From Nannocystis pusilla (GTDB taxonomy: Bacteria > Myxococcota_A > Polyangia > Nannocystales > Nannocystaceae), in the NCBI RefSeq assembly GCF_049337375.1, contig NZ_JBMPIV010000015.1: a stretch of DNA of 64,000 nt. One strand, given 5' to 3'. A program made the position numbers and the translations under genes. Shown here piece after piece: positions 2,431-21,795 of this stretch. The stretch's first letter is position 1. Each line of letters opens with the position of its first letter. Below the pieces are notes generated by a model, which worked only from the letters and a program-made list of their open reading frames with translations, did not search any database and was not told the origin of the DNA.

Positions 2431-2538
2431 GGCTCCGACCATGCCGCGCCTGTCCTTCGCCACGCCGGCCGCGCCGCCCCTCGGCGTCGTGCGGCCCGGC
2501 CGCTCGTTTCATCGTCTCAGCATTTCGGAGGTGATCGC

Positions 2539-3294
2539 GTGCGCGTCCGCTGCGAAGAGGGCGAGCTAGTTCATCGGCTGTTCCTCGGGACAGGTCCCGG
2601 AGAACATGTCGCATTGGACACCGACGGGATCGCCGCGCTGGCCGAGGCGGTCGAGCAGGCGGTCGCCGGTCCGGCGCGCGCGCTGGTGATCGCCAGCGAG
2701 GGCCCCGAGTTCTGCGCCGGCATGGACCTCGCGGCGGCGCTGCGGACCCCGTCGGCGCAGATGCGCGAGGCCATGCAGCGCTTCGCCGGCTGTCTCGAGC
2801 TGCTGGCGAGCGCGAAGCTGGCGACGATCGCGGTGGTCACGGGCGCGGCCAGCGGCGGCGGGGTCGGCCTGGCGGCCGCGTGCGACCTGGTGGTGGCGGC
2901 GTCGGCGGCCACGTTCGCGCTGCCGGAGCTGCGCTACGGGCTGGTGCCGGCGGTGATCTTCCCGGCGCTCGAGGCCCGGATCGGCGCGCGGCGGACCCGG
3001 CGGCTGGCGCTGACCGGCGAGCTGGTGACCGCGGCCCAGGCCGAGCCGTGGGGCCTCGTCGACGTGGTCGCGGACGACCCGGACAAGGCGCTGCGCGGCC
3101 TCTTGCGCTCGCTGCTGCGCGCGCGCCCGCAGGCGGTGGCGACGCTCAAGCGGATCACCGGGCCGTCGGGGCAGGGCGGGGTGGCCCAGACCGCGGCCGA
3201 CCTCGAGGACCCCGAGCTGCGGGCGGCGCTGGCGGCCCTGCTGGCCGAGGGGCAGGCGCCGCCGTGGTTCGCCAGGCTGAAAGGACAGGAATGA
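2539..3294 (+). CDS. enoyl-CoA hydratase-like ECH1 (PksH/TaX-type dehydratase of the HMGS cassette)
   Basis: Crotonase fold: CAGMDL, ...VVTGAASGGGVGLAAACDLVVA. GGAGG lies 7 nt upstream of GTG 2539. Confidence 0.8.
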   Translation: MRVRCEEGELVHRLFLGTGPGEHVALDTDGIAALAEAVEQAVAGPARALVIASEGPEFCAGMDLAAALRTPSAQMREAMQRFAGCLELLASAKLATIAVVTGAASGGGVGLAAACDLVVAASAATFALPELRYGLVPAVIFPALEARIGARRTRRLALTGELVTAAQAEPWGLVDVVADDPDKALRGLLRSLLRARPQAVATLKRITGPSGQGGVAQTAADLEDPELRAALAALLAEGQAPPWFARLKGQE

Positions 3295-4067
3295 ACGCGC
3301 ATGTCCAAACAGACAGCCTCGTCGAGGTGACGCTCGAGCGCGACGGCGTGGCCGTGCTGACCATGCGCGACGCCGCCGGCAAGAACGCGTTCGGCCGGGC
3401 GTTCGTCGCCGTGCTGACGCGCGCGCTCGAGGACCTCGGCCGGCGCGCCGACGTCCGCGTGGTCGTGATCGCCGGCCTGCCCGAGGTGTTCTCCGCCGGC
3501 GGCGACCGCGACGTCCTGCTCGGCCTCGCCGACGGCACGATCGCCCCGTACGACCTGCTGCTGACGCGGGCGCTGCTCGAGGTGCCGGTGCCGACGATCG
3601 CCGCGATGGCGGGGCCCGCGGTCGGCGGCGGCCTGGTGTTCGGCCTCGCCTGCGACATGGTCGTGATGGCCCGCGAGAGCCGCTACGGCGCCAATTTCAT
3701 GGACCTCGGCTTCACGCCGGGGATGGGCGCGACGCGCCTCGTGCAGTTCGCGTTCGGCGAGTACGTCGGGGCCGAGATGCTGTACGGCTCGCAGTACTTC
3801 CGCGGCGAGCAGCTGGCGGGGCGCGGCCAGGTCAACGCGGTCGTGCCGCGCGCCGAGGTGCTGCCGCGGGCGCTCGACCTGGCGGCGCGGATCGCCGACA
3901 AGCCGCGGGCTGCGCTGCTGTTGCTCAAACGTGCGCTGGCGTTGCCGCGGCGACGGGCCTTCGAGGAGGCGCGCACGGTCGAGTCGATGATGCACGAGGT
4001 ATGCTTCGCCGACCCGGAGACGGTGGCGCGGATCCGCACGAACTACGGGCCAGGCCAGGGAGGATGA
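3291..4067 (+). CDS. enoyl-CoA hydratase-like ECH2 (PksI/TaY-type decarboxylase of the HMGS cassette)
   Basis: Crotonase fold (AGKNAFG..., AMAGPAVGGGLVFGLACD). ATGA start/stop overlap with ECH1. Confidence 0.8.
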   Translation: MNAHVQTDSLVEVTLERDGVAVLTMRDAAGKNAFGRAFVAVLTRALEDLGRRADVRVVVIAGLPEVFSAGGDRDVLLGLADGTIAPYDLLLTRALLEVPVPTIAAMAGPAVGGGLVFGLACDMVVMARESRYGANFMDLGFTPGMGATRLVQFAFGEYVGAEMLYGSQYFRGEQLAGRGQVNAVVPRAEVLPRALDLAARIADKPRAALLLLKRALALPRRRAFEEARTVESMMHEVCFADPETVARIRTNYGPGQGG

Positions 4068-4070
4068 CGC

Positions 4071-4886
4071 TTGCTCAATGACTTCAAGGACAGGGTCGTC
4101 TTGATCACGGGCGGGACGCGCGGCATCGGCCTCGCGTGCGCGCTCGCGTTCGGGCGCCAGGGCGCGCGCACGGTGCTGACGCACCGCTGGGGCTCGGCCG
4201 ACGAGGACGCGCTGAAGGCCCGCTTTATCGCCGCCGGGGCCCCGGCGCCGCTGGTGATCGAGGCCGACGCGTCGCGCGAGGAGGACACCGACAAGCTGAC
4301 CGCGCGGCTCAAGGAGGAGTGCGACGGCGTGTGGGCGTTCATCAGCAACGTCTGCGTGGTCCAGCGCGGCGAAGGGCCGGAGAAGCACACCCGGCGCGCG
4401 CTGTACAAGAGCCTCGAGTACTCGAGCTGGCCGTTCGTCGGCTACCTGCAGGCGCTGCACGCCGCGTTCGGTCGCTACCCCCGCTACGCGCTGGCGATGT
4501 CGTCCGACGGGCCCGACACGCACTACCCCGGCTACGACTACGTGGCGGTGGCCAAGGCGGTGCTGGAGACGTTCGTGCGCTACATGAGCACGCACCTCTA
4601 CGAGCACGGCTGCATCGTCAACGCCCTGCGCACCCGCCAGGTGATGACCGAGAGCTACGAGCAGATGTTCGCCGCCCAGCAGCGCGAGCTGGCGAGCAAG
4701 TTCCCCGAGTTCGCGTGCACGGTCGACGAGGTCGCCGACACGACCCTCGCGCTGTGCAGCGGGCTGTTCGACGCGATGGGCGGGCAAGTGCTGACGCTCG
4801 ACCGCGGCGCGGCGTTCGTCGACAACGTCGCCACGCTCGGGCCGCGGCTCGTCGGCGGCAGCGACAAGGAAGGAGCTCCGGCGTGA
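4071..4886 (+). CDS. FabI/FabL-family (SDR) enoyl-ACP reductase, copy 1
   Basis: TGGTRGIGLA Gly motif. Tyr-x6-Lys (YDYVAVAK) followed by VRYMS, as in FabI (YNVMGLAK...VRYMA). Rare TTG start with GGAGGA 6 nt upstream. Confidence 0.65.
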   Translation: MLNDFKDRVVLITGGTRGIGLACALAFGRQGARTVLTHRWGSADEDALKARFIAAGAPAPLVIEADASREEDTDKLTARLKEECDGVWAFISNVCVVQRGEGPEKHTRRALYKSLEYSSWPFVGYLQALHAAFGRYPRYALAMSSDGPDTHYPGYDYVAVAKAVLETFVRYMSTHLYEHGCIVNALRTRQVMTESYEQMFAAQQRELASKFPEFACTVDEVADTTLALCSGLFDAMGGQVLTLDRGAAFVDNVATLGPRLVGGSDKEGAPA

Positions 4887-5698
4887 TCCTCCGCAACGAC
4901 CTCAAGGGCAAGGCCGTCATCGTCACCGGCGGGACGGCGGGCATCGGCCTGGCGACCGGCCTGCTGTTCGGCAAGTACGGCGCGCACGTGTACCTGACGC
5001 ACCGCTGGGGCTCGGCCGACGAGGACGAGCTGCGGGCCCGCTTCGACGCCGCGGGCGCGCCGGCGCCGACGATCGTCGAGGCCGACGCGTCGCAGGACGA
5101 GGACACCGAGGCGCTGATGGAGGCGGTCAAGCGCGACCACGACGCCGTGTTCGCGCTGATCAGCAACGTGTCGTTCGCCCACGTCAGCAAGTCGCACGAG
5201 GACCTCGACAAGAAGAGCTTCCTGCGCAGCCTCGGCTACAGCGCGTGGCCGTTCGTCGGCTACCTGCAGGCCATCCGCGAGACCTTCGGCCGCTGGCCCC
5301 GTTACGCGGTGGGAATGTCGTCGCGCGGGCCCGAGTACTTCCTCCCGGGCTACGACTTCGTGGCCGCGAGCAAGACCGTGATGGAGACCTTCTGTCGCTA
5401 CCTCACGGCAGATCTGCTCAGTGAGGATGTTCGCATCAACATCCTGCGCGCGAACCCGGTCGAGACTGCATCGCTGGAGGCCACGTTCGGGCCCGACTTC
5501 GTGCCGTTCTGCAAGAAGTACTACTCGGAAGGCTGGTTCATCGACCCCGACGAGGTCGCGGCCGCGGCGCTGGCCCTCTGCAGCGGCCTCATGGACGGCG
5601 TCAAGGGGCAGATTCTGCTACTGGACAGGGGCCTCGGTTTCGCCGACAACGTCGTTCGCCTGTTTTCGGCGCGCGAGCGCCACGGGCTGAGTTTTTGA
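4883..5698 (+). CDS. FabI/FabL-family (SDR) enoyl-ACP reductase, copy 2 (tandem paralog)
   Basis: Paralog of the previous CDS (TGGTAGIGLA; HRWGSADEDE; YDFVAASK). GTGA start/stop overlap. AAGGAAGGAG RBS. Confidence 0.65.
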   Translation: MILRNDLKGKAVIVTGGTAGIGLATGLLFGKYGAHVYLTHRWGSADEDELRARFDAAGAPAPTIVEADASQDEDTEALMEAVKRDHDAVFALISNVSFAHVSKSHEDLDKKSFLRSLGYSAWPFVGYLQAIRETFGRWPRYAVGMSSRGPEYFLPGYDFVAASKTVMETFCRYLTADLLSEDVRINILRANPVETASLEATFGPDFVPFCKKYYSEGWFIDPDEVAAAALALCSGLMDGVKGQILLLDRGLGFADNVVRLFSARERHGLSF

Positions 5699-5761
5699 CC
5701 TTCGCTTCCTGCGAGATTCGCTGCGGGCAACCTGCACCGCGCCCACCAAGGAGAACCGAGA

Positions 5762-6028
5762 ATGAGCACCCGCGATGATGTCTTGGCCGTCGTCAAGCGC
5801 CACCTCGTGGACACCGTCGAAGGGATCGATGCGGCCCAGGTCGACCCCGCCAAGTCGATGAAGGACCTCGGGGCCAACAGCCTCGACATCGTCGAGGTCG
5901 TCTCCTGCAGCATGCGCGAGCTCAAGGTGAAGATCCCCCGCGCCGAGCTCAACAAGCTGACGAACATCAACGAGCTCGTCGACCTGCTGCACAAGACGGT
6001 GCAAGAGAAGCAGGCCGCCGCGTCCTGA
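5762..6028 (+). CDS. acyl carrier protein (free-standing ACP, likely donor ACP of the HMGS cassette)
   Basis: 88 aa with LGANSLDIVEVV (DSL phosphopantetheine-attachment Ser). Confidence 0.85.
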   Translation: MSTRDDVLAVVKRHLVDTVEGIDAAQVDPAKSMKDLGANSLDIVEVVSCSMRELKVKIPRAELNKLTNINELVDLLHKTVQEKQAAAS

Positions 6029-7680: not shown

Positions 7681-8285
7681 GGGGCGGGCTTCCGACGGTG
7701 GGTATCCCACAGCACTTCGGGGACGGCGAAGGCGTGGGCCGCGGCGCGGGCGACGACGAAGAACCAGTCGCTCAGGCGATTGATGTAGCGGACGGCCTCG
7801 GGGCGGACCGGCTCGACGCGGGCGAGGGCGACGACGTTGCGCTCGGCGCGGCGGCACACGGTGCGCGCGAGGTGGGCCCAGGCGCCGAGCGGCCCGCCGC
7901 CCGGCAGGATGAAGCTGCGCAGCGGCGGCAGGTCGTGGTTCCACGCGTCGAGCTCGTGCTCGAGGCGCGTGACGTCGGCCTCCTCGACCTTGAGCGGCGC
8001 CTTGCCCTCGGTCGCGCCGGGCGTCGCCAGCTCCGCGCCGAGGTCGAACAGCTCTTGCTGGATCCGCGCCAGCGAGGCGTCGAGCGCGGCCAAGAACTCG
8101 CTGCGCTCGCCGGGCTCACCGACGCGGGAGAGCTCGACGCGCAGCACGCCGATCACCGCGTTGAGCTCGTCGACCTCGCCGTAGGCGGCGACCCGCGGGG
8201 TGTCCTTGCCGACGGTGTCGCCGCTGGCGAGCATCGTGTCGCCGCGGTCGCCGAACTTCGTGTAGACCTTGCTGATGTAGACCAC
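7677..8285 (-). CDS. pduO: ATP:cob(I)alamin adenosyltransferase, PduO-type
   Basis: N-terminal MVYISKVYTKFGDRGDTMLASGD matches the PduO/MMAB signature (KIYTRTGDKGETSL). Confidence 0.85.
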   Translation of the reverse strand: MVYISKVYTKFGDRGDTMLASGDTVGKDTPRVAAYGEVDELNAVIGVLRVELSRVGEPGERSEFLAALDASLARIQQELFDLGAELATPGATEGKAPLKVEEADVTRLEHELDAWNHDLPPLRSFILPGGGPLGAWAHLARTVCRRAERNVVALARVEPVRPEAVRYINRLSDWFFVVARAAAHAFAVPEVLWDTHRRKPAP

Positions 8286-8338
8286 GGGGCTGTCCGATCG
8301 GCCAGGTTTATTCGGGCAGGGGCTCGGGAGCAGGTGCC

Positions 8339-8380
8339 CAGGGACATGCCCGCAAGGACATGTCCCTCAGGACAGTCGGC
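8339..8380. repeat. GGACATGTCC-family palindromic repeat array
   Basis: cagggacatgcccgcaaggacatgtccctcaggacag. Confidence 0.7.
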
Positions 8381-9310
8381 TCAGCGGCCCTTCAGCGCGG
8401 CGATGAGGCGCGGCTGGAGCTCGGGGATGATGACGAACACCCAGCCCAGCTGCGCCTTGACGCCGTCGACGAGGATCGCCCAGCGGTGGCGCTCGTCGAG
8501 CTCGATGACGAAGATCAGGAGGCCGTTGTCGCCCTCGATGATGAACTTGTTGATGCCCTTGGCGAGGGCGTCCTCCGAGCGGGTCAGCGCGTTGTGCAGC
8601 TGCTCGGACAGGCGGTTGAACATGGCGCACGCCTTGGGCGCCGAGTTGATGCCCGCGAGCGACATGCCCGAGGCCTTGCTGATGATGTCGACGCTGATGA
8701 GGCCGCCCATGAGGTGGTCGTCGAGCTCCTCGAGGATGGCCTTCACGACCTTGAGGTCCATGTCTGACAGCTCCTTGTCGCGCGCTGCAACGTTGGGGGC
8801 GGCCGCGTAGGCCGGCGTCGGTGGGGTGATGGGCAGCGGCGGAAGTGGCGGGACGGTGACCGGCGCAGCTCGCTGCGGCTTCTCGATCACCGGCACCGGC
8901 GGAGGGGAGGGCGGCGTCGCGGTGCGTGGCGGCGGCTCGCTGCGCGGCGGCGGCTCGCTGCGCGGCGGCTCGCTGCGCGGCGGGGGCTCGTTGCGCGAAG
9001 CCTCGTCGCGCTGACGGGCCCGGTCCATCAACAACGCGACGATCGAGGTGTGTCGCACCGTCTGCGGGCAGTTCTCGGGCAACTGCGAAGACGAGACGCT
9101 CCCCTCGCGCCAGTCGAGGATCGTGTTGACGGCGTCGTCACCCTGGGCCGCGCCGGTCTCGGCGTGGACGAGGTTGCCGCCCTGGAAAAACATCGCGCCG
9201 ACGCCATGCGGCGACTCGACGGACAGCTTGATCGACATGCGCGACGTCTGCGCAAGTTGCAGGATGTCCCAAAGTTCAAATCCACCGATCTGGGCGATCG
9301 TGGTTGCCAT
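8381..9310 (-). CDS. DUF4388 (N-terminal) - Pro-rich linker - Roadblock/LC7 (C-terminal) fusion protein
   Basis: N-term FELWDILQLAQTSRMSIKLSVE...GAMFFQGGNLVHAETG (DUF4388-like). EPPPRSEPPRSEPPPRSEPPPR repeats. C-term LKVVKAILEELDDHLMGGLISVDIISKASGMSLAGINS (Roadblock-like). ATG 9310 has a GGGGAGG RBS. Confidence 0.65.
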   Translation of the reverse strand: MATTIAQIGGFELWDILQLAQTSRMSIKLSVESPHGVGAMFFQGGNLVHAETGAAQGDDAVNTILDWREGSVSSSQLPENCPQTVRHTSIVALLMDRARQRDEASRNEPPPRSEPPRSEPPPRSEPPPRTATPPSPPPVPVIEKPQRAAPVTVPPLPPLPITPPTPAYAAAPNVAARDKELSDMDLKVVKAILEELDDHLMGGLISVDIISKASGMSLAGINSAPKACAMFNRLSEQLHNALTRSEDALAKGINKFIIEGDNGLLIFVIELDERHRWAILVDGVKAQLGWVFVIIPELQPRLIAALKGR

Positions 9311-9695: not shown

Positions 9696-11636
9696 TCACC
9701 GCAGCAGGGCGTAGGCCGACGTCACCAGCAAATTGGCGATCGCCAGGGGCACCGCGGCCCGCTCGAGAAAGAAGAGAGCAGCGCGCGCACGCGAGCCGGT
9801 GGCCGACGCGTGCAGCCGCTGCACGAACCATACGACCGCAGCGATCTTCGCCGCCGCCACGACTGCGCCGATGAACAGCACGAGGCCGTGGCCGCTGCCG
9901 GCGAGCGCCGCCGCGGGCAAACCACCGCCAAGGAAACAGGCGACGAACGCCGCCGCGAAGGCGAGTCGTTCGAGCCGTCCTGCCGGCGGCGCGGCCGCGA
10001 CCGCGAGGGCCACTGCAGCGGCGATCGGTTGCACGAAGATTCCCCAAGAGGGAGGGATCGCAGCACCGCCGACGAGCCCCGCTGCTTGCTCCCCCACGAG
10101 CCGCCGTGGATCGAGGGTCCCAAAGGCCAGCAACGGACCGGCGAATGCGGCGGCGAGGGCGAGGTCGCGCGACGCGAGGCGGCGGGCCAGCGCAGCCCGG
10201 TCGACGAGGCGACCGAGGCCGGCGGACACGAGGGCGACGAGATAGACGAGCCAGCCTTCACCGACGGCGATCAGCGACAGCGAAGCACCGCCCCGACCCG
10301 CGGCGCACTGCTCGACGTCCGCCGCCGAGAGGCTGCTGCCGACGCCGTCGAAGCATAGGCCGGGACCGAACGGGAACAGCGCCAGGGCGGCGAGCACCGG
10401 CAGCCAGGTGGTCCAGTTCAGCCGGGTGCGACGCGTCGAAATCCACGCCAGCGCGACGAGCGCGAGCGCCAGGGCGGTGCGGATCGCCGTGCGCCGCAGA
10501 TCGCTCGCGAGGTCGGGCGGCTCCCAGCGGAGCTCGACGATCTGGGGCGCCTCTCCCGCCGCAAAAAGGAGGCGCGCGCTACCGGAGCGAGAGGCGCCGG
10601 CGCGATCGAAGTGGTCGCGGTCGACGCGGAGGCGCAGGCTCACGGCTCCGCCGGCAGCGATCTCCCGCGGGTACTCGCGGTTCTCGATCGAGAAGGCGCC
10701 CCAGTCCGGGGTGCGGGTGTCGAAGCGGATCCGGGTCAACGGCACGGGCGCCGCGCCGTGATTCACGAGCCGCAGCTCGAGACGCTCCGCCGCCGGCGTG
10801 AACACGAGGGTCCCCGGTTCGGGGCGCACGCCCGTCGGCGGCGCGCCGCAGCCGAGCGCGAGGGCGAAGAAGAGGACGCAGGGCGCGGCGGGCGAGGTCG
10901 CGGCGCGGAGGAAGTTGCGACGCGGGAGCGGCGAGCTCGCGTGCGCGACGCGGGCGAGCGGGAGCGGCGAGGCGACCGAAGTGGACAGTCGCAGCGATAC
11001 GGCCGCGAGCGAGGAGCTCGCGCTTGCCGCCAAGCTGCGAAGAAGTGGATGCGGAGACGCTACCGCGAGCGAGGAGCTCGCCAGCGTCTCGTCGACCCCG
11101 CGCATGGCCGAAGCGGACGAAGGCGGCGACGCGACCTCGGGCCGGGTGCTCGCGCTTGCATCAAAGCTGCGAGAAAGCGGGAGCGTCGAGGTGACCTGGG
11201 GCGAGGAACTGACGCGCGTGTCGTCGATCGAAGCGGACGGTCGCAACGAAGCGACCTCGGGCGAGGTGCTCGCGCTTGCCTCGAAGCTGCGGCGAAGTGG
11301 AAGCGGCGACGCGGCCTCGGGCGGGGAGCTCGCTGGCGTCTCGTCGACGACATGCATGACCGAAGCGGACGGTCGCAGCGACGCGACCTCGAGCCGGACG
11401 CTCGCCTCTTCGAGCTGGAAGCTCGCAGGTTCCTCGTCGACGCCAGGCATGGCCGACGCGAGCTCGGGCGAGGAGCTCGCACGAAGCGGCGACTCGAGCT
11501 CGCGCGACACGACGTCCGGCGCCACGCCGTCGCAGGCCCTTGCGGCCAGGTCACTCGCCGACGAGTCCACGCGCAGCGCGACGTCGCGGCTCGCCGACGC
11601 GGGCGCAGGCGAGGCGGCGGCGCGCGGGCGGATCAT
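9696..11636 (-). CDS. large membrane protein: disordered Ser/Ala/Pro-rich repeat N-terminus, one TM, Ig-like middle region, polytopic C-terminus
   Basis: Start placed at ATG 11636 (ATGA overlap with the upstream small-ORF stop) rather than 11750. Four to five ~42-aa repeats (ASLRPSAS..VDETPASS..). Confidence 0.55.
   Translation of the reverse strand: MIRPRAAASPAPASASRDVALRVDSSASDLAARACDGVAPDVVSRELESPLRASSSPELASAMPGVDEEPASFQLEEASVRLEVASLRPSASVMHVVDETPASSPPEAASPLPLRRSFEASASTSPEVASLRPSASIDDTRVSSSPQVTSTLPLSRSFDASASTRPEVASPPSSASAMRGVDETLASSSLAVASPHPLLRSLAASASSSLAAVSLRLSTSVASPLPLARVAHASSPLPRRNFLRAATSPAAPCVLFFALALGCGAPPTGVRPEPGTLVFTPAAERLELRLVNHGAAPVPLTRIRFDTRTPDWGAFSIENREYPREIAAGGAVSLRLRVDRDHFDRAGASRSGSARLLFAAGEAPQIVELRWEPPDLASDLRRTAIRTALALALVALAWISTRRTRLNWTTWLPVLAALALFPFGPGLCFDGVGSSLSAADVEQCAAGRGGASLSLIAVGEGWLVYLVALVSAGLGRLVDRAALARRLASRDLALAAAFAGPLLAFGTLDPRRLVGEQAAGLVGGAAIPPSWGIFVQPIAAAVALAVAAAPPAGRLERLAFAAAFVACFLGGGLPAAALAGSGHGLVLFIGAVVAAAKIAAVVWFVQRLHASATGSRARAALFFLERAAVPLAIANLLVTSAYALLR
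10800..11600. repeat. intragenic tandem DNA repeats (~126 bp x 4-5) encoding the S/A/P-rich repeats
   Basis: Periodic sequence on both strands (e.g. ...gaagcggacggtcgcaacgaagcgacctcgggcgaggtgctcgcgcttgcctcgaagctgcg... recurs). Confidence 0.6.
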
Positions 11637-11980
11637 GGCGCGCGGGTCAGCGAGGGCCACGCGATCGCGGTCGCCAGACCCAGCAGGCCGAGGCCGGCGG
11701 CGCTGACCCAGAGGGCAGGTCCTTCCGGACATGTCGTGCTGGACAGGCACACCGCGGCGGTCGGCGCGAACAGGACCAGGGCCAGCGCGAGCGCGAAGCC
11801 GAGGCCGGCGAGCGCGAGGAGGCCGCCGGTGTCGACGGGCTGGCGCGGGCGCAGCTGCACCAAACTCTCGCCGGTGTCGGTCGCGGCTTGCTGCCTCGCC
11901 CGGGCGCGGACCAGGCCGGCGAGGACCCCGATGAGCCCGACGGCTGCGACGAGCGGCAGGTAGTCGAGCAGGGGGCCCAT
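11633..11980 (-). CDS. small membrane protein (115 aa, 3 TM)
   Basis: ATG directly abuts the macro-domain gene stop (TAA-ATG). Its stop overlaps the downstream start (ATGA). Confidence 0.55.
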   Translation of the reverse strand: MGPLLDYLPLVAAVGLIGVLAGLVRARARQQAATDTGESLVQLRPRQPVDTGGLLALAGLGFALALALVLFAPTAAVCLSSTTCPEGPALWVSAAGLGLLGLATAIAWPSLTRAP

Positions 11981-12508
11981 TTACGGGATGTTCCCTTCCA
12001 TGGCCAGCTCGAACACCTCGACGTCGTCGGCGTCCTTGGCCATGAGGAAGGCGCGGAGCGGGCGGTCGCCGCGGTAGACCTTGAGCTCGCTGTGGATCGC
12101 GCGAGCCGCCTCCTCGGCCGGGATCCCGAGCTCGAACGCACCCATCAACGGGACGGCGACGCTCGTGAAGCCCTTGACCTTGCAGGCCACCAGCACGGCC
12201 GCGGTGGCGCGCAGGACGTCCTCGACCTGGACGCGACCGCCGGGGCGATCGGTGTTGGGCACGTGGATGAGGTACTTCGCCTTCATCTTGCCGGCCGGCG
12301 TCACGAACGCGGCGCCGATCGCCAGCGGGGTGTGCTCCTTCACCATCGCCTCGATCTCGCGACCGGCGAGGTCGCGGATCTTGTTGGCCGGGAAGTGACT
12401 CATCACGCCCTCGGAGTTGGTCGGACAGACGAAGGCGTCGACCGCGATCTGCTCCCAGGGCAAGGTCGAGATCTGGATCTCGACGGACTCATTGATGTCG
12501 GTGGCCAC
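11981..12508 (-). CDS. macro-domain (ADP-ribose binding/processing) protein
   Basis: 175 aa. AVDAFVCPTNSEG and an internal Gly-rich region fit the macro fold (cf. ..DAIVNAANSSL..). Confidence 0.55.
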   Translation of the reverse strand: MATDINESVEIQISTLPWEQIAVDAFVCPTNSEGVMSHFPANKIRDLAGREIEAMVKEHTPLAIGAAFVTPAGKMKAKYLIHVPNTDRPGGRVQVEDVLRATAAVLVACKVKGFTSVAVPLMGAFELGIPAEEAARAIHSELKVYRGDRPLRAFLMAKDADDVEVFELAMEGNIP

Positions 12509-12521
12509 GCGCGGACCTTAC

Positions 12522-13013
12522 TCAAGCCTGCAGCATCGAGTCCAGCTCGGCGGCGATCGCGGACTCGGGCTCGTTGCGGACGGTCGAGAGCTCACGAATG
12601 ACCAGGTTCCGGGCGGTCTGCAGCATCTGCCGCTCGCCGTGCGAGAGGTTCTTGGTGTGCTTGAGGAGGCTCAGATCGCGGTACACCTCGCCGACCTCGA
12701 ACAGCGAACCCGTGCGGATCTTCTCCATGAAGCCGCGGTAGCGCCGGTTCCAGGTCTGGCGATCGCACGGGACCTCGTGGTCGCGCAGCAGATCGTAGAG
12801 CTCGTCGATCATCTCGCCGTCGGCGAGGGGACGCATGCCGTTCTCTTCGGCCTTGGCCACCGGCACGATGATCTTCAGGCCAGAGCCGAGGACGCGCAGG
12901 TGATAGAACTGGAAGGGGCGCGACTCGATGATTTTCGTCTCGAGGGCCATGACCTCGGCGACACCGTGAGTCGGGTAAACGGCCTTCTCACCAACGTTGA
13001 ATCGGGGTTGCAT
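12522..13013 (-). CDS. cdnL: CarD-family RNA-polymerase-binding transcription factor
   Basis: MQPRFNVGEKAVYPTHGVAEVMALE... matches the CarD/CdnL N-terminal RNAP-interacting domain. 163 aa. Confidence 0.8.
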   Translation of the reverse strand: MQPRFNVGEKAVYPTHGVAEVMALETKIIESRPFQFYHLRVLGSGLKIIVPVAKAEENGMRPLADGEMIDELYDLLRDHEVPCDRQTWNRRYRGFMEKIRTGSLFEVGEVYRDLSLLKHTKNLSHGERQMLQTARNLVIRELSTVRNEPESAIAAELDSMLQA

Positions 13014-13476: not shown

Positions 13477-14175
13477 TCACTGCAGGGCCACGATCCGCCA
13501 TCCCTGAGGAGTCTGCTCGAGCGTCAGGGCGCGCCCGGGCTCGTAGCGCAGGATCGCGCGTTCCATCCCCGGCGTGAACTCAATTGCCCCAGGTTGCTTC
13601 AGGAGTTGCTCCAGAAGGTCGGCCCGGCGGTTCCAGTCGTCGCGGAGGCGCGAAGAGAGATCGTCTGCGAGTAGCGCGGAAAGCGCGCCGAGATCGGCCC
13701 GCCGGACGGCCGTCAAAAAGGCCCGAATCGCGCTGGCCGGGGTCGAGAGGTCCGGCAAGCCCGGCAGGCCGGTCACGACCTGGTAATGACCGCCGACCTG
13801 CACCCAGGCGAGGACGGCGCCGTCGTGGATGGTCTCGCCGCCCCGCATCGGCGTCTTGAGCGCCGGAGGCAGCGTGTCGAGCGCGGCCCTGGCCGCCGAG
13901 CGCTCGGCTGCCTGCGCTTTCCAGCGCGCCGTGAACGCCTCCTTCGAGGTCGCGGCGCGCAGCTCCGGGCTGAGCAGAGCGTACGCAGCGGCCGGATCGT
14001 CGGCGGCCAGAGCGCGCGCATAGGCGTCGCGCAACGCTTCAGGGCTGCGCGCGCCGCCACCGCCGCGACAGGCCAGCAGCAACAGACCGGCGAGCAACAA
14101 GGATGAGCGGCGACGTACGGGCCGCCGAATGCCGGGTGCGCGGAGCGTGGGCAAGGCTCGATGGATTCCTGTCAC
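13477..14175 (-). CDS. lipoprotein, hypothetical
   Basis: Signal peptide with lipobox LLLLAC. Confidence 0.5.
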   Translation of the reverse strand: MTGIHRALPTLRAPGIRRPVRRRSSLLLAGLLLLACRGGGGARSPEALRDAYARALAADDPAAAYALLSPELRAATSKEAFTARWKAQAAERSAARAALDTLPPALKTPMRGGETIHDGAVLAWVQVGGHYQVVTGLPGLPDLSTPASAIRAFLTAVRRADLGALSALLADDLSSRLRDDWNRRADLLEQLLKQPGAIEFTPGMERAILRYEPGRALTLEQTPQGWRIVALQ

Positions 14176-14190
14176 AAAGGCCAGGTCGGC

Positions 14191-15804
14191 TCAGGCCTTG
14201 GGCCCGCTGCGCTTGTCGAGGATGATGTCGTGCGCGTACTCGTCGCGCGTGGTCGGGTAGTCGATCGTGTAGTGGAGGCCGCGCGACTCCTTGCGCTGGC
14301 GGGCGCACTCGATGATGAGGCTGCCGACCAGAGAGATGTTGCGCAGCTCGAGCACGTCGCGGGTGACGCGGAATTTCCAGTAGTACTCGAGAATCTCCTC
14401 GCGGATGAGGTCGAGCCGCCGCCGCCCGCGCTCGAGCCGCTTGTCCGAGCGGACGATGCCGACGAAGTTCCACATGGCGGCGCGCACCTCTTCCCAGTTG
14501 GCCGAGACCATGACTGCCTCGTCCGACTCGCGCGCGGCGCCCTCGTTCCACGGGCTGACGTGGTCGGGCGGGCCGCGGCCGAAGTCGTCGCAGGCCTGGG
14601 CGGCGCCGTCGGCGAGGACGACCGCCTCGAGCAGACTGTTGGAGGCCAGGCGGCAGGCGCCGTGGAGGCCGCTCATCGCGACCTCGCCGATCGCCATCAG
14701 CCCGGGGACGTCGGTGCGGCCGTGGCGATCGACGACGATGCCGCCGCACATGTAGTGGGCCGCGGGGACCACGGGGATCGGGTCCTTGCGCATGTCGATG
14801 CCGACCGACATGCAGCGGGCGTGGATCGCCGGGAAGCGGCTGACCACGTAGTCCGGATCGAGGTGCGTCATGTCGAGGAACACGCAGCGCTCGCCCGACC
14901 GCTTGAGCTCGGCGTCGATCTCGCGGGCGACCACGTCGCGCGGGGCGAGCGAGCCCATCGGGTGCCGCTCGGCCATGAGGTCGCTGCCGTCGGCCCGCCG
15001 CAGGATGCCGCCCTCGCCGCGCAGCGCCTCGGAGATCAAGAAGGTGTTGGCGTCGGGGTGGTGCAGGCAGGTCGGGTGGAACTGCATGAACTCGAGGTTG
15101 CCGACCGAGGCGCCGATCCGGTAGGCGACCGCGACGCCGTCGGCGGTGGCGACCGCCGGGTTGGTCGTATAGCGGTAGACGCGGCCGGCCCCGCCGGTGG
15201 CGAGGACCGTGATCGGGGCGACGAATGCCTCGACCCGGTCGGCGGCGTTGTTGAGCGCATACACGCCGAAGCAGCCGCGGCTGCCGTCGACCTTGGTCCA
15301 GCTCAGGAGGTCGATGACGGTGTGGTGCTCGTGGATCGTGATGTTCGGGTGGGCGTGCGCGGCCGCCAGCAGGGCGCGCTCGATCTCGTAGCCGGTGGTG
15401 TCGCGGTGATGCACGACGCGGCGGCGCGAGTGGCCGCCCTCCCGCCCGAGCTCGAAGGGGGCGTGCTCGTCGCCGCCGACGCGATCGAAGTGGACGCCGT
15501 AGCGCTCGGCCAGGCGCCGCACGAGGGTGGGCCCGCGCTGGACGGCGTAGGTGACCATGTCACGGTTGCACAGGCCGGCGCCGACGGTCAGCGTGTCCTC
15601 GATGTGCTCCTCGAGCGAGTCGTCGCCCGCGAACACGGCCGAGATCCCGCCCTGGGCCCAGCGGGTGTTGCTCGACTCGGCGCGGTGCTTGGTGAGGATC
15701 ACCACCGGCCCGCGATCCGCGACCTCGAGGGCGAAGTAGAGGCCCGCGAGCCCGCTGCCGAGCACGAGGTAGCGCGCGTGGTGGATCGGCGTGCTGGCAA
15801 TCAT
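14191..15804 (-). CDS. nadB: L-aspartate oxidase
   Basis: FAD-binding LVLGSGLAGL. Flavoprotein motifs throughout (RSxRGLHY-like ...KESRGLHYT). Start re-derived at MIASTPIHH (ATG 15804), dropping a 112-aa Arg/Pro-rich extension. Confidence 0.9.
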   Translation of the reverse strand: MIASTPIHHARYLVLGSGLAGLYFALEVADRGPVVILTKHRAESSNTRWAQGGISAVFAGDDSLEEHIEDTLTVGAGLCNRDMVTYAVQRGPTLVRRLAERYGVHFDRVGGDEHAPFELGREGGHSRRRVVHHRDTTGYEIERALLAAAHAHPNITIHEHHTVIDLLSWTKVDGSRGCFGVYALNNAADRVEAFVAPITVLATGGAGRVYRYTTNPAVATADGVAVAYRIGASVGNLEFMQFHPTCLHHPDANTFLISEALRGEGGILRRADGSDLMAERHPMGSLAPRDVVAREIDAELKRSGERCVFLDMTHLDPDYVVSRFPAIHARCMSVGIDMRKDPIPVVPAAHYMCGGIVVDRHGRTDVPGLMAIGEVAMSGLHGACRLASNSLLEAVVLADGAAQACDDFGRGPPDHVSPWNEGAARESDEAVMVSANWEEVRAAMWNFVGIVRSDKRLERGRRRLDLIREEILEYYWKFRVTRDVLELRNISLVGSLIIECARQRKESRGLHYTIDYPTTRDEYAHDIILDKRSGPKA

Positions 15805-16637: not shown

Positions 16638-16667
16638 GCCGCCGCCGATCTCGCAAGACCTCGCGTC

Positions 16668-17315
16668 TTGTCTTGGACCTGGCCCGAGCTTCGCGGTAGG
16701 CTCCCGCGGCTTTCTGTGAAGAGGTACGAAGGCTTCCGCCGGGAGATCCTGAATCTCCCCAACATGATCACCATCGGCCGGGTGTTCCTCATCCCGCCGG
16801 TGCTCATGCTGATCGACAAGACCGATCCGTGGCGCTGCGTGCTCGCGTCGCTGCTGTTCACGGTCGCGTCGCTGCTCGACCTGATCGACGGCTGGCTGGC
16901 CCGCCGCTCCGGCCTGGTGACGGTGTTCGGCAAGTTCGTCGACCCGCTCGCCGACAAGATCATGGTGGCGGCGGTGCTCATCTATCTGGTGATGGACGAC
17001 CGCGCGCCAGCCTGGCTGGTGGTGCTGCTGCTGACCCGCGAGTTCTACATCAACGGCCTGCGCTCGCTCGCCAGCTCGGAGAACATCATCATCGCGGCCA
17101 GCGCCGGCGGTAAGGCGAAGACGGCGTTCCAGCTGACGGGCATCTCGTTCCTTCTGATGCACTACCGCTACCGCCTGCCGGGCATCGAGGAGGCGCTCGA
17201 CTTCCATCGCGTCGGCCTGGTGCTGCTCGGGCTGTCGGTGTTCGTGTCGATCAAGAGCGCGGTCGACTACACGTTCGGCTTCCGCGAGGCGCTGGCGCAG
17301 AAGAACGCCGAGTGA
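16668..17315 (+). CDS. pgsA: CDP-alcohol phosphatidyltransferase (PgsA-like)
   Basis: D-G-x2-A-R...G...D-x3-D motif (DLIDGWLARRSGLVTVFGKFVDPLADK). The true start may be ATG ~16764 (MITIGRV). Confidence 0.8.
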   Translation: MSWTWPELRGRLPRLSVKRYEGFRREILNLPNMITIGRVFLIPPVLMLIDKTDPWRCVLASLLFTVASLLDLIDGWLARRSGLVTVFGKFVDPLADKIMVAAVLIYLVMDDRAPAWLVVLLLTREFYINGLRSLASSENIIIAASAGGKAKTAFQLTGISFLLMHYRYRLPGIEEALDFHRVGLVLLGLSVFVSIKSAVDYTFGFREALAQKNAE

Positions 17316-18577
17316 GCCGGGCGCGCCAGATCGCGGCGCTGGCCGCGTCGGAGCCGGGCGGCGCGCTGGCGTGGCTCGACGGTGGGTCGGGGCGAGGGTT
17401 CGTGGCGCTCGAGCCCGACCTCGAGGTGGTTGCCGACGACCTGTCGGCGTTGCCGACGATCGAGGCGCTCTGGCGGGCCGAGCCGGCGCTGCCGTGGTTC
17501 GGCTGGCTGACCTACGAGGTCGGCACGGCGGCGCTGCTCGGCCGCCCGCCGACGACGGCGAGCTTGCCGGGGCTGGTGCTCCGCCGTTACCGGGCGGCGC
17601 TCGAGCTCGGGGCGCGCGAACGGATCCACGGGGACGCTCGCGCGGGGGCGGAGCTGCTGGCGCGGCTGGCGACCGCCACCTGGCCTTGGGGACAGGACTG
17701 GCCGCTCGGTCCGGTCGAGGCGCTGGTCGCTGCCGAGGACTACCGGGGGCGCGTGCGCCGGGCGCAGGAGTTCATCGCGGCCGGGGAGACGTACCAGATC
17801 AACCTGACGCAGCCGTTCGTGGCCAGGTGGCTGCCGGAATGGGCGAGTCGGCCGGTGGCGGCCAGGGCGGCGGCCGTGTACGCGGCGGTGCAGGCGGCGA
17901 CGCCGGCGAGCATGGGCGGCCTGCTGGCGATCGAACCCGGGCGGCCGTGCGGGCGCTGGACGATCTCCAATTCGCCGGAGACGCTGCTGGCGATCGAGCT
18001 GGGGGCGGGAGAAGACGGGGGCGACCTGGCGCGCTCGTGGCCGATCAAGGGGACGCGCCCGCGAGGGGCCGATCCGGGTGGTGACCGGGCGGCCCAGGAA
18101 GAGTTACAGCAGAGCATCAAAGATCTCGCCGAACATGTGATGATCGTTGATCTTGTGCGCAACGATCTGGGCCGGCTCGCGCGCCCGGGTTCGGTCCGCG
18201 CGCCGGCCCGGCCCGAGCTGGTGACGCTGCCGACGGTGCATCACCTGGTGTCGGAGGTCCGCTGCACGCTGCGCGAGGGATGGACGCTGGCGGAGGTGAT
18301 GGCCGCGGTGTTCCCGGGCGGGAGCGTGACGGGAGCCCCCAAGCGACGCACGGCCGAACACATCGAGCGGCTCGAGCAGCGCGCTCGCGGGATCTACTGC
18401 GGGGCGATCGTGGCGCTGCTGCCCGACGGGCTGCGCTGCAGCATCCCGATCCGCACCGGAGTGGCCGACGCGGCCGGGCTGTGGCTGCAGAGCGGTGGGG
18501 GGATCGTCATCGACTCCGACCCGGAGGCCGAACGCCGCGAGTGCTGGGACAAAGTGCGCGCGTTCGAGCGGCCCTGA
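17312..18577 (+). CDS. pabB: chorismate-utilising enzyme, aminodeoxychorismate synthase component I-like
   Basis: GETYQINLTQ, IKGTRPRG, EHVMIVDLVRND, FPGGSVTGAPK motifs. Confidence 0.8.
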   Translation: MSRARQIAALAASEPGGALAWLDGGSGRGFVALEPDLEVVADDLSALPTIEALWRAEPALPWFGWLTYEVGTAALLGRPPTTASLPGLVLRRYRAALELGARERIHGDARAGAELLARLATATWPWGQDWPLGPVEALVAAEDYRGRVRRAQEFIAAGETYQINLTQPFVARWLPEWASRPVAARAAAVYAAVQAATPASMGGLLAIEPGRPCGRWTISNSPETLLAIELGAGEDGGDLARSWPIKGTRPRGADPGGDRAAQEELQQSIKDLAEHVMIVDLVRNDLGRLARPGSVRAPARPELVTLPTVHHLVSEVRCTLREGWTLAEVMAAVFPGGSVTGAPKRRTAEHIERLEQRARGIYCGAIVALLPDGLRCSIPIRTGVADAAGLWLQSGGGIVIDSDPEAERRECWDKVRAFERP

Positions 18578-18913
18578 GCGGCAGGAGCCTCGGCTTGCAG
18601 CTCGGTGAGCCGCTTGGAAGACAGGGCGAAAAACGAGCGCGACGGCGCGCCAGGAAGCGCAGGAGCCTGATCGAATCGGAGGCGGGCGCCGTGGGCCGCT
18701 GACCGGTTTTGCGACGAAGCGGTGCAGAAGCTTGAGCCGAGGGGCGCTTGCCGGGCAGCCGGCTGAGGAGCGGTTCAGGGGGCCTTGCCTGGAGGCATCG
18801 GGCGCGTCTCGCTCAGAGGGGGGCTCGCCGCGGAATAGGGCGCGAGGTCCAGGTGGGGGCCCAGGGCATGAATCGAGCCTGGCTGGCCTCCGAAGATAGG
18901 GCTTGGTCGCGGC

Positions 18914-19498
18914 TCAGGTGGCGGGCTTTGCCTCGGGCGTATTCTCTTTGGTTTCAGGCGGTTGTGCGTGGAACATCAAGTACGGGATGAGCAGCAGGAC
19001 GCCGATGACGAGGGCGATGTCGGCGACGTTGAAGTTCGGCCAGCACAGACCGCGAGGGTTCCACGGGGAGCACACGCGGATGAAGTCGACCACGCCGTGG
19101 GTGAGGTTGCCGTGGAAGTCGGTGTCCTGGCGCAGCAGGCGGTCGTGCATGTTGCCGAGGGCGCCGCCGATGATGCAGCCGATGGCGAAGAAGCCGTAGA
19201 GGCGGTCGGTCGGCAGCTTGCGGACGAGGGCGGCCATGTAGACGACCGTCACCAGGGTGACGACGATGAACAGGGGCCGCGAGAAGTCCTGGCCGCGCAG
19301 GAAGCCGAAGGCGGAGCCGGTGTTGAAGCTGTAGGACCAGTGGAACCAGTTGCCGATCGCGGCAATCTGCCGGTTCGGCGGCCGCAGGTTGTCCCAGGCC
19401 CAGCTCTTGGTCACGAGATCGAGGATCAGAAACACCGCGGCTGCGGACGCGGTGACGAGGATCGGCCGGAGCCGGTTCGATGCTGGCGTGTCGCTCAT
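18914..19498 (-). CDS. lspA: lipoprotein signal peptidase II, copy 1
   Basis: FNVADIALVIGV and GALGNMHDRL motifs. Start re-derived at MSDTPASN (ATG 19498). Confidence 0.85.
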   Translation of the reverse strand: MSDTPASNRLRPILVTASAAAVFLILDLVTKSWAWDNLRPPNRQIAAIGNWFHWSYSFNTGSAFGFLRGQDFSRPLFIVVTLVTVVYMAALVRKLPTDRLYGFFAIGCIIGGALGNMHDRLLRQDTDFHGNLTHGVVDFIRVCSPWNPRGLCWPNFNVADIALVIGVLLLIPYLMFHAQPPETKENTPEAKPAT

Positions 19499-19639
19499 GT
19501 AGGGCCGAAAACCTGGCCAGTGTACCCGAGGCACCAGGGCGAGCAAGCGCAGCCGCCGCTGCTCCGCGGGCCGCAGAGACGGTCGGAAGGGCAGCCGAGA
19601 AGGGTTGCGGGGTAGGTCGCGCGGTTGCCGCTGCGCGCG

Positions 19640-19880
19640 CTGACGGATCCAGGATCCGCGGGTCGAGGGGCTGAGCACGACCGCTGAGCGCGACATCCGA
19701 CCGGCGTACCGCAAGGCGTCAGCACGAGACTCAGGCGGGGGGCGGATGGTCGGGCCGCAAGGCGGCAGCACGAGGTCCGATGGGTCGGCGGTCTCGAGGC
19801 GGTGGGGGCCTCGAGGCGCGGCAGCACGAGGCTCAGGCGGAGGTGCGCTGGTCGGCGGCGGCCTCGGTGCGCGGCAGCAC
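19640..19880. repeat. 3-4 degenerate tandem copies (~45-55 bp) of the lspA copy-2 3' end
   Basis: ctcgtgctgccgcgc...ccgcctga (coding end of lspA copy 2) recurs downstream as gcctcgtgctgccgcgcctcgagg..., cctcgtgctgccgccttgcgg...ccgcctga, gtctcgtgctgacgccttgcgg. Confidence 0.6.
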
Positions 19881-20369
19881 GAGCAGGAACAAGAGCACGC
19901 CCGCGACCAGGACGGCGTCGGCGATGTTGAAGGCCGGCCAGGTCTTGCCGCCCCACAGGTAGACGACGATGAAGTCGACCACGCAGTAGTCGCCGGCGTA
20001 GACGCGGACCAATCGGTCGTGGAGGTTGCCGAGGGCGCCGCCGGCGATCAGACCGATGGCGATGAAGGCGGCCCGGCTGGTGGTCGGCAAGGTCCGCGCG
20101 AGGTGCACGAGGTAGCCGACCGCGGCCAGGGTGATGACGATGAAGAAGTAGCGCGCCCAGTCGACGTCGTTGAGGAACCCGAAGGCAGAGCCGGGATTGC
20201 AGGCGAAGTCGAAGTGCAGCAGCTTGTCGCTGACCTTCCAGGCGGCCTGGTCCCGCAGGTTGTTCCAGACCCACGCCTTGCTCCAAAGGTCGAGGCCGAG
20301 GCTGAGACCTGCGATCACCGCTGCGAGGGCGATCCGCGGTCCGCGTGTGGGTTCGGGTGGGGCGGCCAT
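19833..20369 (-). CDS. lspA: lipoprotein signal peptidase II, copy 2
   Basis: FNIADAVLVAGV and GALGNLHDRL motifs. Start re-derived at MAAPPEPTRGPRIALAAV. Confidence 0.85.
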   Translation of the reverse strand: MAAPPEPTRGPRIALAAVIAGLSLGLDLWSKAWVWNNLRDQAAWKVSDKLLHFDFACNPGSAFGFLNDVDWARYFFIVITLAAVGYLVHLARTLPTTSRAAFIAIGLIAGGALGNLHDRLVRVYAGDYCVVDFIVVYLWGGKTWPAFNIADAVLVAGVLLFLLVLPRTEAAADQRTSA

Positions 20370-20898
20370 GGCGGGCGCGGAGCATACCAGGGTCGCGCCC
20401 GCAGTGAACCCGTTCGCGAGGCGAGATCCGTGACGTCGACCTCGCACGCACGCCGCGCCTCCGAAGCCGCGGCTCCAGGGACCTCGAAGGGCGGCGCTCG
20501 ACGTACGCGACGGTGCGTCCCGTTCGCGCTTGCTCGGTGGCGATCCCGGGAGGACAGGCGATGTCCCGCTGCGCGCCGACCGGCGAGGGCCACGGCCGAC
20601 GCGAACTGTCAGAGCGGAGGAGGCTTCGAGCGCCGCAGGATCCGACGGAGTAGGCGCAGTCAGGTGAGGCGCGCGTGGGCCTCGGGGAGCCTTGAACTCG
20701 CCGCGAGCGTCTTGGGGTGGGCGAGGATCAGCGTCGGCCGGTGGCGAGCACGTTGGCGATCGCGGGGTAGCCCGATGCGGGGTGCTCGCCCGCAGTTGGG
20801 CCTGCTGTGCTCACCATGATGGTGGGTCCCCTGCTTTCGAATTCGACGCAGAGCCAGGCGCCGTGGGCAGAGACGTCGTGCTTTCCTGTGACGAGCCC

Positions 20899-21795
20899 TC
20901 AGGCGCGCTGGAGCAGATCGAACAGGGCCGGGCGGCGGCGGCGGGGCCACGTCGAGCGCGGATGCGCGAGCGCTCGCCGGCCGCGAGAGACCCGCTGATC
21001 CATGGCCTGGCGAGTCATGCCGTCGAGGGCGACCGGGCGCTCGGCCTGCAGTTCGGTGAGCTCGCGCCGCTCCTCGCCAAGGAGCGCGGCCAAGGCGTTC
21101 TCCAGCAGGACGGCCTCCGGCAGGCGGAGCTCGCGGAGGGCGGCTCGGAGGCGGGCGCGCATGCGCAGCTCCTCGCGGGTGTCCTCGCCGGTGTCGCGCA
21201 GCTCCTCGGCGCGCGACTGGGCGTCGCGGGCCAGCGAGACCGAGGCGGAGGCGAGAAGGACGGTCAGCGGGCGAACTTCGGGATCGGCGAGCTCGGGGTG
21301 ATGGAGGAGCGTCGCGACCTCGGTGTAGGCGATCGCGTCGACGTCGGACTCCTCGCCGCCGACGACCTCGAACTCCTCGCCCCGAAACGCGGTGACGAAC
21401 AGGCGCAGACGGATGGCCTCGAACACCAGCAGCTCCGCCAGCGCGGCCTGGAGGGCGCTGCGCCGGTCGTCGTCGCCGCCGCGGGCGAAGTCGACGAGCA
21501 TGTGCTGCAGCGGCGGATTGCCGACCCCGTTGGCGGCGAGCCGCGCCCATGGCTCCAACTCCTCCGGAATCTCGAGGAAGAGGGCGTCGCGCAGGCCCTG
21601 GTGGAAGCTCTGCAGGGCGGGGAAACGCGGGTCGCGGACCGCGGCCAACAAAGAAAGGCCCTGGCGGCGCGCGCGCAGGGCCTCGTCGGCGAGGACGTCG
21701 AGCTCGGACTGGAGCTCCACCACATCAAGGGGGGCGGCGACGCCGCCACCGGCCGGGAGAGGAAGGAGGTGGGTGACGGCGGCGGCGACGTTCAT
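20899..21795 (-). CDS. hypothetical protein
   Basis: 298 aa of non-low-complexity sequence, co-directional with and downstream of an epimerase. Confidence 0.4.
   Translation of the reverse strand: MNVAAAVTHLLPLPAGGGVAAPLDVVELQSELDVLADEALRARRQGLSLLAAVRDPRFPALQSFHQGLRDALFLEIPEELEPWARLAANGVGNPPLQHMLVDFARGGDDDRRSALQAALAELLVFEAIRLRLFVTAFRGEEFEVVGGEESDVDAIAYTEVATLLHHPELADPEVRPLTVLLASASVSLARDAQSRAEELRDTGEDTREELRMRARLRAALRELRLPEAVLLENALAALLGEERRELTELQAERPVALDGMTRQAMDQRVSRGRRALAHPRSTWPRRRRPALFDLLQRA

Follow-up and report, generated by a model that had tools for sequence, protein, structure and literature searches.

A stretch of 64,000 nucleotides from Nannocystis pusilla, in the following referred to as the window, carries two signal peptidase II (lspA) genes in tandem on its minus strand, separated by a spacer with short direct repeats. 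Our analysis makes it very likely that the pair represents ancient housekeeping lipoprotein signal peptidases of the myxobacterial type, and that the repeats in the spacer are recent slippage copies in unconstrained DNA. The original prediction for this DNA had been that one of the two genes could be an allele resistant to the product of a nearby polyketide beta-branching cassette. This assignment was not borne out by the synteny, the phylogeny and the selection pattern of the pair, nor by its position relative to the cassette.

Identity and selection of the two lspA genes

As had been predicted, both genes are complete Peptidase_A8 (signal peptidase II) open reading frames arranged head-to-tail, and the interval 18914-20369 coincides exactly with the stop codon of the one and the start codon of the other. 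The gene transcribed first, lspA-U (19833-20369, minus strand), encodes 178 amino acids (aa) starting with MAAPPEP, and the gene transcribed second, lspA-D (18914-19498, minus strand), encodes 194 aa starting with MSDTPAS. Pfam PF01252 (cutoff 25 bits) covers the full domain in both, with 106 bits and an E-value of 2e-30 for lspA-U (profile positions 2-138 of 142) and 110 bits and an E-value of 1.4e-31 for lspA-D (positions 2-142). With the NCBIfam equivalog TIGR00077, whose cutoff is 73.95 bits, lspA-U scored above the threshold (84.7 bits) and lspA-D 0.65 bits under it (73.3 bits). Besides these two genes no lspA was found in the 64-kb window, which has a G+C content of 71.8%. The start codons of both genes match independent gene calls in public assemblies. 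We do not regard the longer open reading frame that extends across the spacer (18914-19771, 285 aa) as coding, since its Arg/Pro-rich extension lacks conservation and the independent calls begin at the ATG at 19498.

The catalytic aspartate motifs read VVDF and FNIAD in lspA-U and VVDF and FNVAD in lspA-D, and alignment to the Pseudomonas aeruginosa LspA structures 9emz and 5dir places them on the catalytic aspartate dyad. Furthermore, the residue set of the P. aeruginosa enzyme (D23, K27, N-x-G-x-A-F, GGALGN..DR, VVDF and FN.AD) is invariant in both copies and likewise across all 10 aligned myxobacterial sequences. For both copies we predict aspartyl peptidase activity, by which the signal peptide would be cleaved off diacylglyceryl-modified prolipoproteins.

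The two proteins share 44% amino-acid identity, in line with the divergence of the paralogs that had been noted before. Each of them is considerably closer to its own counterpart in related strains: lspA-U is 97.6% identical at the protein level to its orthologue in another N. pusilla (locus L001), and lspA-D is 89-91% identical to its closest Nannocystis orthologues, among them one N. pusilla assembly with 89%. A protein identical to LspA-D was called on three independent Logan contigs, which are described below. Comparison of the window with L001 gave ratios of nonsynonymous to synonymous substitution rates (dN/dS) of 0.14 for lspA-U and 0.25 for lspA-D, the neighboring pabB gene yielding 0.20; dN/dS values against the more distant locus L002 are unreliable due to saturated synonymous sites and a strong codon bias. 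Both lspA copies are evidently under purifying selection, and neither of them resembles a recently acquired or relaxed allele.

Synteny, lgt and the age of the pair

For the comparison with relatives, orthologues of LspA-D were looked up and their contigs fetched, while the loci L013-L015 were obtained from a profile search of genome contigs with LspA, among the matches listed. The resulting set comprises N. pusilla (L001), a more distant Nannocystis metagenome-assembled genome (MAG; L002), metagenomic Nannocystis contigs (L003-L008), GCA_020633335.1 (L010/L011), a Nannocystaceae MAG (L013), a sister MAG (L095) and more distant Myxococcota (L009, L014, L096). In every genome of Nannocystaceae and other Myxococcota that was retrieved, amounting to 13 further loci besides the window, the lspA genes were found within one and the same block, consisting of an epimerase gene, a gene for a protein of about 300 aa, the two lspA genes, pabB and pgsA (both in opposite orientation), an SLT gene (again in opposite orientation), a FAD oxidoreductase gene, CarD and a Macro-domain gene. 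In the window the conserved right edge of this block is formed by a pgsA-like CDP-alcohol phosphatidyltransferase gene (16638-17315, plus strand) and a pabB-like aminodeoxychorismate synthase gene (17312-18577, plus strand), which are convergent with lspA-D; together with the SLT, FAD oxidoreductase, CarD and Macro-domain genes they place the lspA pair outside any biosynthetic cluster. The first lspA is immediately preceded, in the window as in the syntenic loci, by the gene for the protein of about 300 aa (20899-21795, minus strand), for which neither Pfam nor NCBIfam gave a match. This protein is conserved with 52-94% identity in L001, L002, L009, L010, L013 and L014; at L015, the sole exception among the syntenic loci, tblastn gave no match. 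Possibly this protein is a hitherto uncharacterised member of a lipoprotein-maturation operon.

One difference between the loci concerns lgt. In five of them, namely L009 (5085-5948), L010/L011 (5123-6004 in L010), L013 (3126-3989), L014 and L096 (5595-6476), lgt sits exactly between both lspA copies, and in L010 the second lspA begins 4 nucleotides (nt) before lgt ends, as expected of an operon. The syntenic loci without lgt are L001-L008, several of which are near-identical contigs, as well as L015 and L095; the gene is thus missing from the inter-lspA position in all Nannocystis loci retrieved and in L095 and L015, the two lspA genes standing adjacent to each other in the latter two. With the operon-type Lgt as the tblastn query, the window and the Nannocystis loci yielded neither a remnant in the spacer nor an lgt nearby or in the window. 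Since lgt is located between the copies in L009, L010, L013, L014 and L096, we conclude that the linkage of the lspA pair with lgt is ancestral and was lost in the window. The second LspA of L009 (6001-6948) was called with 315 aa, including an acidic, repeat-like N-terminal extension of about 130 residues that has no counterpart in the other orthologues; the extension may be due to a mis-called start or may be genuine.

Neighbor-joining trees revealed that the second copies of the Nannocystaceae form a clade with 98% bootstrap support. Within it, the second copies of the lgt-less loci L095, L002, L007, L001 and the window constitute a clade with 100% support, which is the sister group of the lgt-containing L013 and L010. 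This structure of the second-copy clade indicates a single loss of lgt and a duplication of lspA older than the family. The ancestral locus would accordingly have had the order gene of about 300 aa, lspA, lgt, lspA, pabB and pgsA (the last two in opposite orientation) and would have served as a lipoprotein-maturation operon. From this operon lgt would have been removed in the lineage towards Nannocystis, leaving behind a short junction as it is still seen in L095 (5 nt) and L002 (60 nt). In this way the comparison reconstructs the ancestral lspA-lgt-lspA operon of the Myxococcota together with its remodelling in Nannocystis.

Each of the two genes is preceded by a promoter-like element on the minus strand. 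For lspA-D it spans 19519-19546 and consists of TTGCTC (19541-19546) and TACACT (19519-19524), which are separated by 16 nt, with another 20 nt to the ATG. For lspA-U it spans 20381-20408, where TTCACT (20403-20408) and TATGCT (20381-20386) are again separated by 16 nt, followed by 11 nt to the ATG. The stretch of about 60 nt that precedes the ATG of lspA-D hardly varies among five Nannocystis spacers which cannot be aligned elsewhere, and the 60-bp spacer of L002 carries TTGCCT-16-TACACT. The block before lspA-U is the sole part of its upstream region conserved with L001, L006 and L007. A consensus promoter scan of 18700-20700 called nothing, both elements lying under the threshold. We propose that after the loss of lgt the two genes came to be transcribed separately from these putative promoters; since the consensus scan called nothing, it is conservation on which this proposal rests. 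That the pair was retained for reasons beyond redundancy, either by a division of the very large lipoproteome of myxobacteria between the two enzymes or with one of them as a backup tolerating the LspA inhibitors of competing myxobacteria, with the loss of lgt and the separate promoters then having uncoupled their regulation, appears rather unlikely to us.

A tandem of this kind has been described for Myxococcus xanthus, whose lspA1 and lspA2 lie in tandem in an lgt operon and have been proposed to be housekeeping genes (Xiao & Wall 2014, reviewed in PMC8689077); their locus tags, MXAN_0368 and MXAN_0369, confirm the adjacency (bioRxiv 10.64898/2026.08.28.747804). Like lspA1 and lspA2, the genes of the window are adjacent, on the same strand, outside an antibiotic cluster and both predicted to be active, and they share the association with lgt, which the window's syntenic relatives display directly. 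Unlike the M. xanthus pair, they have no lgt at their locus, are 334 bp apart and possess separate promoter-like elements. By analogy we infer that the window pair is equivalent to lspA1/lspA2. The locus is an ordinary conserved housekeeping tandem of lspA genes, of a myxobacterial type that is already known, and what sets it apart is a lineage-specific loss of lgt and, in the spacer thus formed, a recent array ascribed to slippage.

Several points weigh against the reading of the pair as a housekeeping tandem that lost its lgt. The ancestral presence of lgt is derived by parsimony from five lgt-containing loci as opposed to three lgt-less lineages. Of the approximately 24 orthologue clusters that a database search for the operon-type Lgt yielded, none bore the name Nannocystis, but names are attached to only about a quarter of the entries. 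With respect to the phylogeny, the deep nodes of the neighbor-joining trees lack resolution, and in the N. pusilla group the first copies stand on a long branch that has no supported connection to the other first copies. The orthology to lspA1/lspA2 rather than to lspA3/lspA4, which are discussed below, rests on synteny and on the description in the review and not on a tree. Finally, the promoter-like hexamers are weak, with 3/6 and 4/6 matches, and went uncalled in the scan.

Spacer and repeat array

The spacer between lspA-U and lspA-D (19499-19832, minus strand) comprises 334 bp, is non-coding and occupies the position of lgt in the relatives. It had been described as consisting of three to four decayed duplications of an lspA 3' end. 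This description turned out to be correct in part: three decayed copies of the terminal 53 nt are indeed present, but they cover only about 150 of the 334 nt (19680-19830), in the half proximal to lspA-U. The remaining 180 nt or so (19499-19679) are non-repetitive and close with the block that is conserved across Nannocystis. It is also true that the repeats derive from the 3' end of an lspA; the source, however, is not the downstream-located copy, as had been assumed, but the transcriptionally upstream lspA-U, which lies at the higher plus-strand coordinates.

The template, unit 0 (19831-19883, minus strand), comprises the last 17 codons of lspA-U, the stop codon and 2 further nt (CTCGTGCTGCCGCGCACC...CCGCCTGAGC). 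It is followed on the same strand by unit 1 (19775-19830, 56 nt), in which the 13-nt head is exact and the identity to unit 0 amounts to 75%; this unit holds an internal 18-nt tandem duplication (GCCTCGAG... twice), which is absent in the near-identical strain L003. In unit 2 (19729-19774, minus strand, 46 nt) the head is again exact, the identity to unit 0 is 87% at the aligned positions, and the tail CCGCCTGAGT keeps the copied stop codon. Unit 3 (19680-19728, minus strand, about 49 nt) exhibits one mismatch in the head and is the most decayed of the copies, so that its 3' limit is approximate; it has CGCCTTGCGG in common with unit 2. Compared pairwise, the units are 75-88% identical, with indels.

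The array emerged from repeat finding, from a motif search and from Smith-Waterman alignments compared with shuffled sequences. Allowing for at most one mismatch, the head 13-mer CTCGTGCTGCCGC (sense strand) gave four matches in the whole 64 kb, all of them at the lspA-U end or in the spacer (starts at 19883, 19830, 19774 and 19728, corresponding to spacings of 53, 56 and 46 nt), where chance would account for about 0.9 matches per 64 kb. In Smith-Waterman alignments to the spacer, the last 53 nt of lspA-U outscored 500 of 500 dinucleotide shuffles. Tandem Repeats Finder reported for this region only a 13-nt repeat with 1.9 copies; it misses the array because the units differ by indels.

In order to trace the age of the repeats, the spacers of the lgt-less relatives were compared. 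Their length varies widely, from 5 nt in L095 and 60 nt in L002 to 205 nt in L006, 277 nt in L001, 301 nt in L007/L008, 318 nt in L003-L005 and 334 nt in the window, and apart from the last 60 nt or so the Nannocystis spacers cannot be aligned with each other. Repeats of the lspA-U 3' end exist in the window and in the near-identical strain represented by L003-L005, and in no other of these spacers; the alignment of the 3' end to the spacer reached significance for the window and L003, but not for L001, L006 and L007. L003-L005 are the contigs from three sequencing runs (SRR28678145, SRR34284947 and SRR28678144) that carry the LspA-D identical to that of the window. Misassembly of short GC-rich repeats does occur, and an assembly artefact was therefore considered; as the array recurs, slightly altered, in the independent assemblies of these three runs, the probability of an artefact is practically negligible.

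The comparison of the window with L003 revealed 7.4% substitutions and 20 gap columns (an 18-bp and a 2-bp indel) in the repeat zone, as compared to 2.2% substitutions in the spacer outside the repeats and a synonymous divergence (dS) of 0.035-0.045 in the flanking genes. Moreover, each of the non-coding 13-mer heads is substituted in L003, and unit 1 is shorter there by 18 nt. Divergence in the repeat zone exceeds that at synonymous sites, which differ by about 4% between the two strains, and the repeats are restricted to one lineage; we conclude that they are recent and unrelated to the gene duplication. The suggestion of a slippage-prone region is supported by the indels and substitutions between the strains, whereas the other suggestion, a footprint of the duplication, does not agree with repeats that are confined to the window and its near-identical strain, the duplication itself being ancient.

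For the same reasons we regard a scar of the paralog formation, or of the removal of lgt, as very unlikely. The repeats do lie exactly at the junction between the genes, that is, at the site of lgt in the relatives. Nevertheless, the duplication predates the family, and no Lgt-coding remnant is present in the spacer. Moreover, lgt was lost before L095, L002 and the N. pusilla group separated from each other, and their spacers of 5 nt, 60 nt and, unrelated in sequence, 205-301 nt are free of the repeats.

A functional cis element, such as an array of regulator sites or an attenuator controlling lspA-D, would offer another explanation for four direct repeats with a near-invariant 13-nt head and a spacing of about 50 nt upstream of a promoter-like block. 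The spacer showed no match in Rfam, and its RNA folding was no better than that of shuffled sequences (z-score 0.02). Furthermore, the repeats are absent from all other Nannocystis spacers compared, the substituted heads and the shortened unit 1 of L003 as well as a divergence exceeding that of synonymous sites speak against constraint, and the copied stop codon and the out-of-frame copies are what a blind duplication of the gene end would give. We consequently judge such a function to be highly improbable.

The observations agree with slippage or unequal exchange of recent date in GC-rich DNA that is free of constraint, and we infer a slippage mechanism. According to this scenario, the junction left by lgt would have grown to a spacer of 200-334 bp in the N. 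pusilla-like group, unconstrained apart from the promoter-like sequence of about 60 nt before lspA-D. In the strain lineage of the window, replication slippage, or else unequal exchange, at short GC-rich repeats would then have copied the last 53 nt or so of lspA-U, including the stop codon, three times in tandem. Only the first unit would be in frame and under selection, and the others would be decaying via substitutions and further small slippage indels. In analogy to known slipped-strand and unequal-exchange duplications, the copies of about 50 nt are arranged head-to-tail between short direct repeats and are polymorphic in length among close strains, and their decay grows with the distance from the selected copy. 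Unlike the usual non-coding slippage arrays, the template here is the 3' end of a gene with its stop codon, the coding copy being preserved while the duplicates decay. The array thus provides a small and clean case of a gene end that was tandemly copied together with its stop codon and is now decaying.

The intergenic region upstream of lspA-U (20370-20898) comprises 529 nt in the window as compared to about 80 nt in L001, L006 and L007, and the last 50-70 nt alone are common to the window and these three loci. L003-L005 match only the proximal 238 nt of the region and then diverge. Both intergenic regions flanking lspA-U are therefore enlarged in the lineage of the window; a second copy of the 20370-20898 insert was not found elsewhere in the window.

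HMGS cluster and self-resistance

The polyketide beta-branching cassette predicted at a distance of about 14 kb is genuine. At the left end of the window (1-6028, plus strand) lies the right part of an HMGS beta-branching cluster with genes for KS, KR, HMGS, ECH1, ECH2, two SDRs and ACP, of which ECH2 scored above the NCBIfam cutoff of the PksI-type model. From lspA-D the distance is 12.9 kb to the ACP gene and 16.5 kb to the HMGS gene, and the interval holds at least ten unrelated genes, which are distributed over both strands. The left part of the cluster was deduced from N. pusilla (L012, GCA_049060185.1), Pseudenhygromyxa (L093) and a Nannocystis MAG (L094), where it adds an AONS/SPT-like pyridoxal phosphate (PLP)-dependent aminotransferase, a FabD-like acyltransferase and a FabA/ApeI-like dehydratase and is followed by sugar-nucleotide genes. 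The resulting compact cluster of 11 genes is conserved across the Nannocystaceae (L012 5061-14835, L093 4769-14971, L094 4839-14875). The HMGS of the window is 99% identical to that of N. pusilla, and orthologues with 60-80% identity occur across the family (Enhygromyxa, Pseudenhygromyxa), one further orthologue being annotated from a Planctomycetota MAG.

In M. xanthus, lspA3 and lspA4 are situated inside the myxovirescin (TA) cluster (PMC8689077, PMC8048626), and the genome mining tool ARTS flags the myxovirescin lspA by duplication, proximity to a biosynthetic gene cluster and phylogeny (PMC7319560). Self-resistance by target duplication, or else regulation, is seen as the role of lspA3 and lspA4. 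By the same logic, one LspA copy of the window would be an allele resistant to an LspA-targeting polyketide made by the HMGS cluster. This precedent (PMC8689077, PMC8048626, PMC7319560), a duplicated target gene whose copies have diverged to 44% identity and a genuine beta-branching cassette in the same window all speak for self-resistance. As with lspA3 and lspA4, there are extra copies of the target gene in a myxobacterium, with an HMGS cassette in the same genome region. In contrast to lspA3 and lspA4, however, the copies of the window lie neither within nor beside the cluster, and both are inherited in a housekeeping block across the Nannocystaceae and beyond, under a purifying selection comparable to that on pabB. 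Looked at with the ARTS criteria, the pair displays the duplication alone, and this family-wide; neither proximity to a biosynthetic gene cluster nor an incongruent phylogeny was found, both copies residing in the same syntenic block and the tree of the second copies yielding the supported Nannocystaceae clade.

The cluster itself does not favor self-resistance either. The presumed resemblance to the myxovirescin (ta) cluster is limited to the HMGS cassette, which is combined here with discrete enzymes. A modular polyketide synthase (PKS) or nonribosomal peptide synthetase (NRPS) was found neither in the 10 kb left of the cassette in L012, L093 and L094 nor among the ten largest remaining genes of the window that were tested, so that, unlike the TA pathway, the cluster lacks modular megasynthases and appears self-contained, with discrete enzymes of the fatty acid synthase type and the PLP aminotransferase. 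Like the known cassettes of the PksF/AcpK/PksG/PksH/PksI type, the region 1-6028 encodes KS, ACP, HMGS, ECH1 and ECH2. It differs from them in that these genes sit among discrete type II-like enzymes (AT, DH, KR and two SDRs) and the AONS/SPT-like aminotransferase rather than in a modular assembly line, and in being conserved family-wide. As a guess, the product could be a beta-branched amino lipid or a sphingoid-like base. The genes on the right-hand side of the cluster in L093 and L094 are other ones than those leading to lspA in the window; hence the linkage between cluster and lspA is not conserved. The HMGS cassette belongs to a self-contained cluster that is unrelated to lspA, and its closeness is coincidental.

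Taken together, self-resistance is a most improbable explanation for the lspA pair. For target-directed genome mining the locus calls for caution: where a duplicated antibiotic target lies some 15 kb or less from a biosynthetic cassette, self-resistance is mimicked, as it is here by an ancient housekeeping pair.

Two further observations concern the cluster and the remainder of the window. Compared to the window and to L093 and L094, L012 exhibits a split KS gene (7900-9235), a fused ECH1-ECH2 gene (11350-12876) and a split SDR gene (13692-14572), which are probably frameshift errors of that assembly rather than biology. Far from the lspA genes, a bacterial protein encoded at 47787-48932 (plus strand) gave a match to the GRAS domain (PF03514, E-value 1.6e-35), and its gene is followed downstream by genes for a SpoIIE-type phosphatase and for an adenylate/guanylate cyclase.

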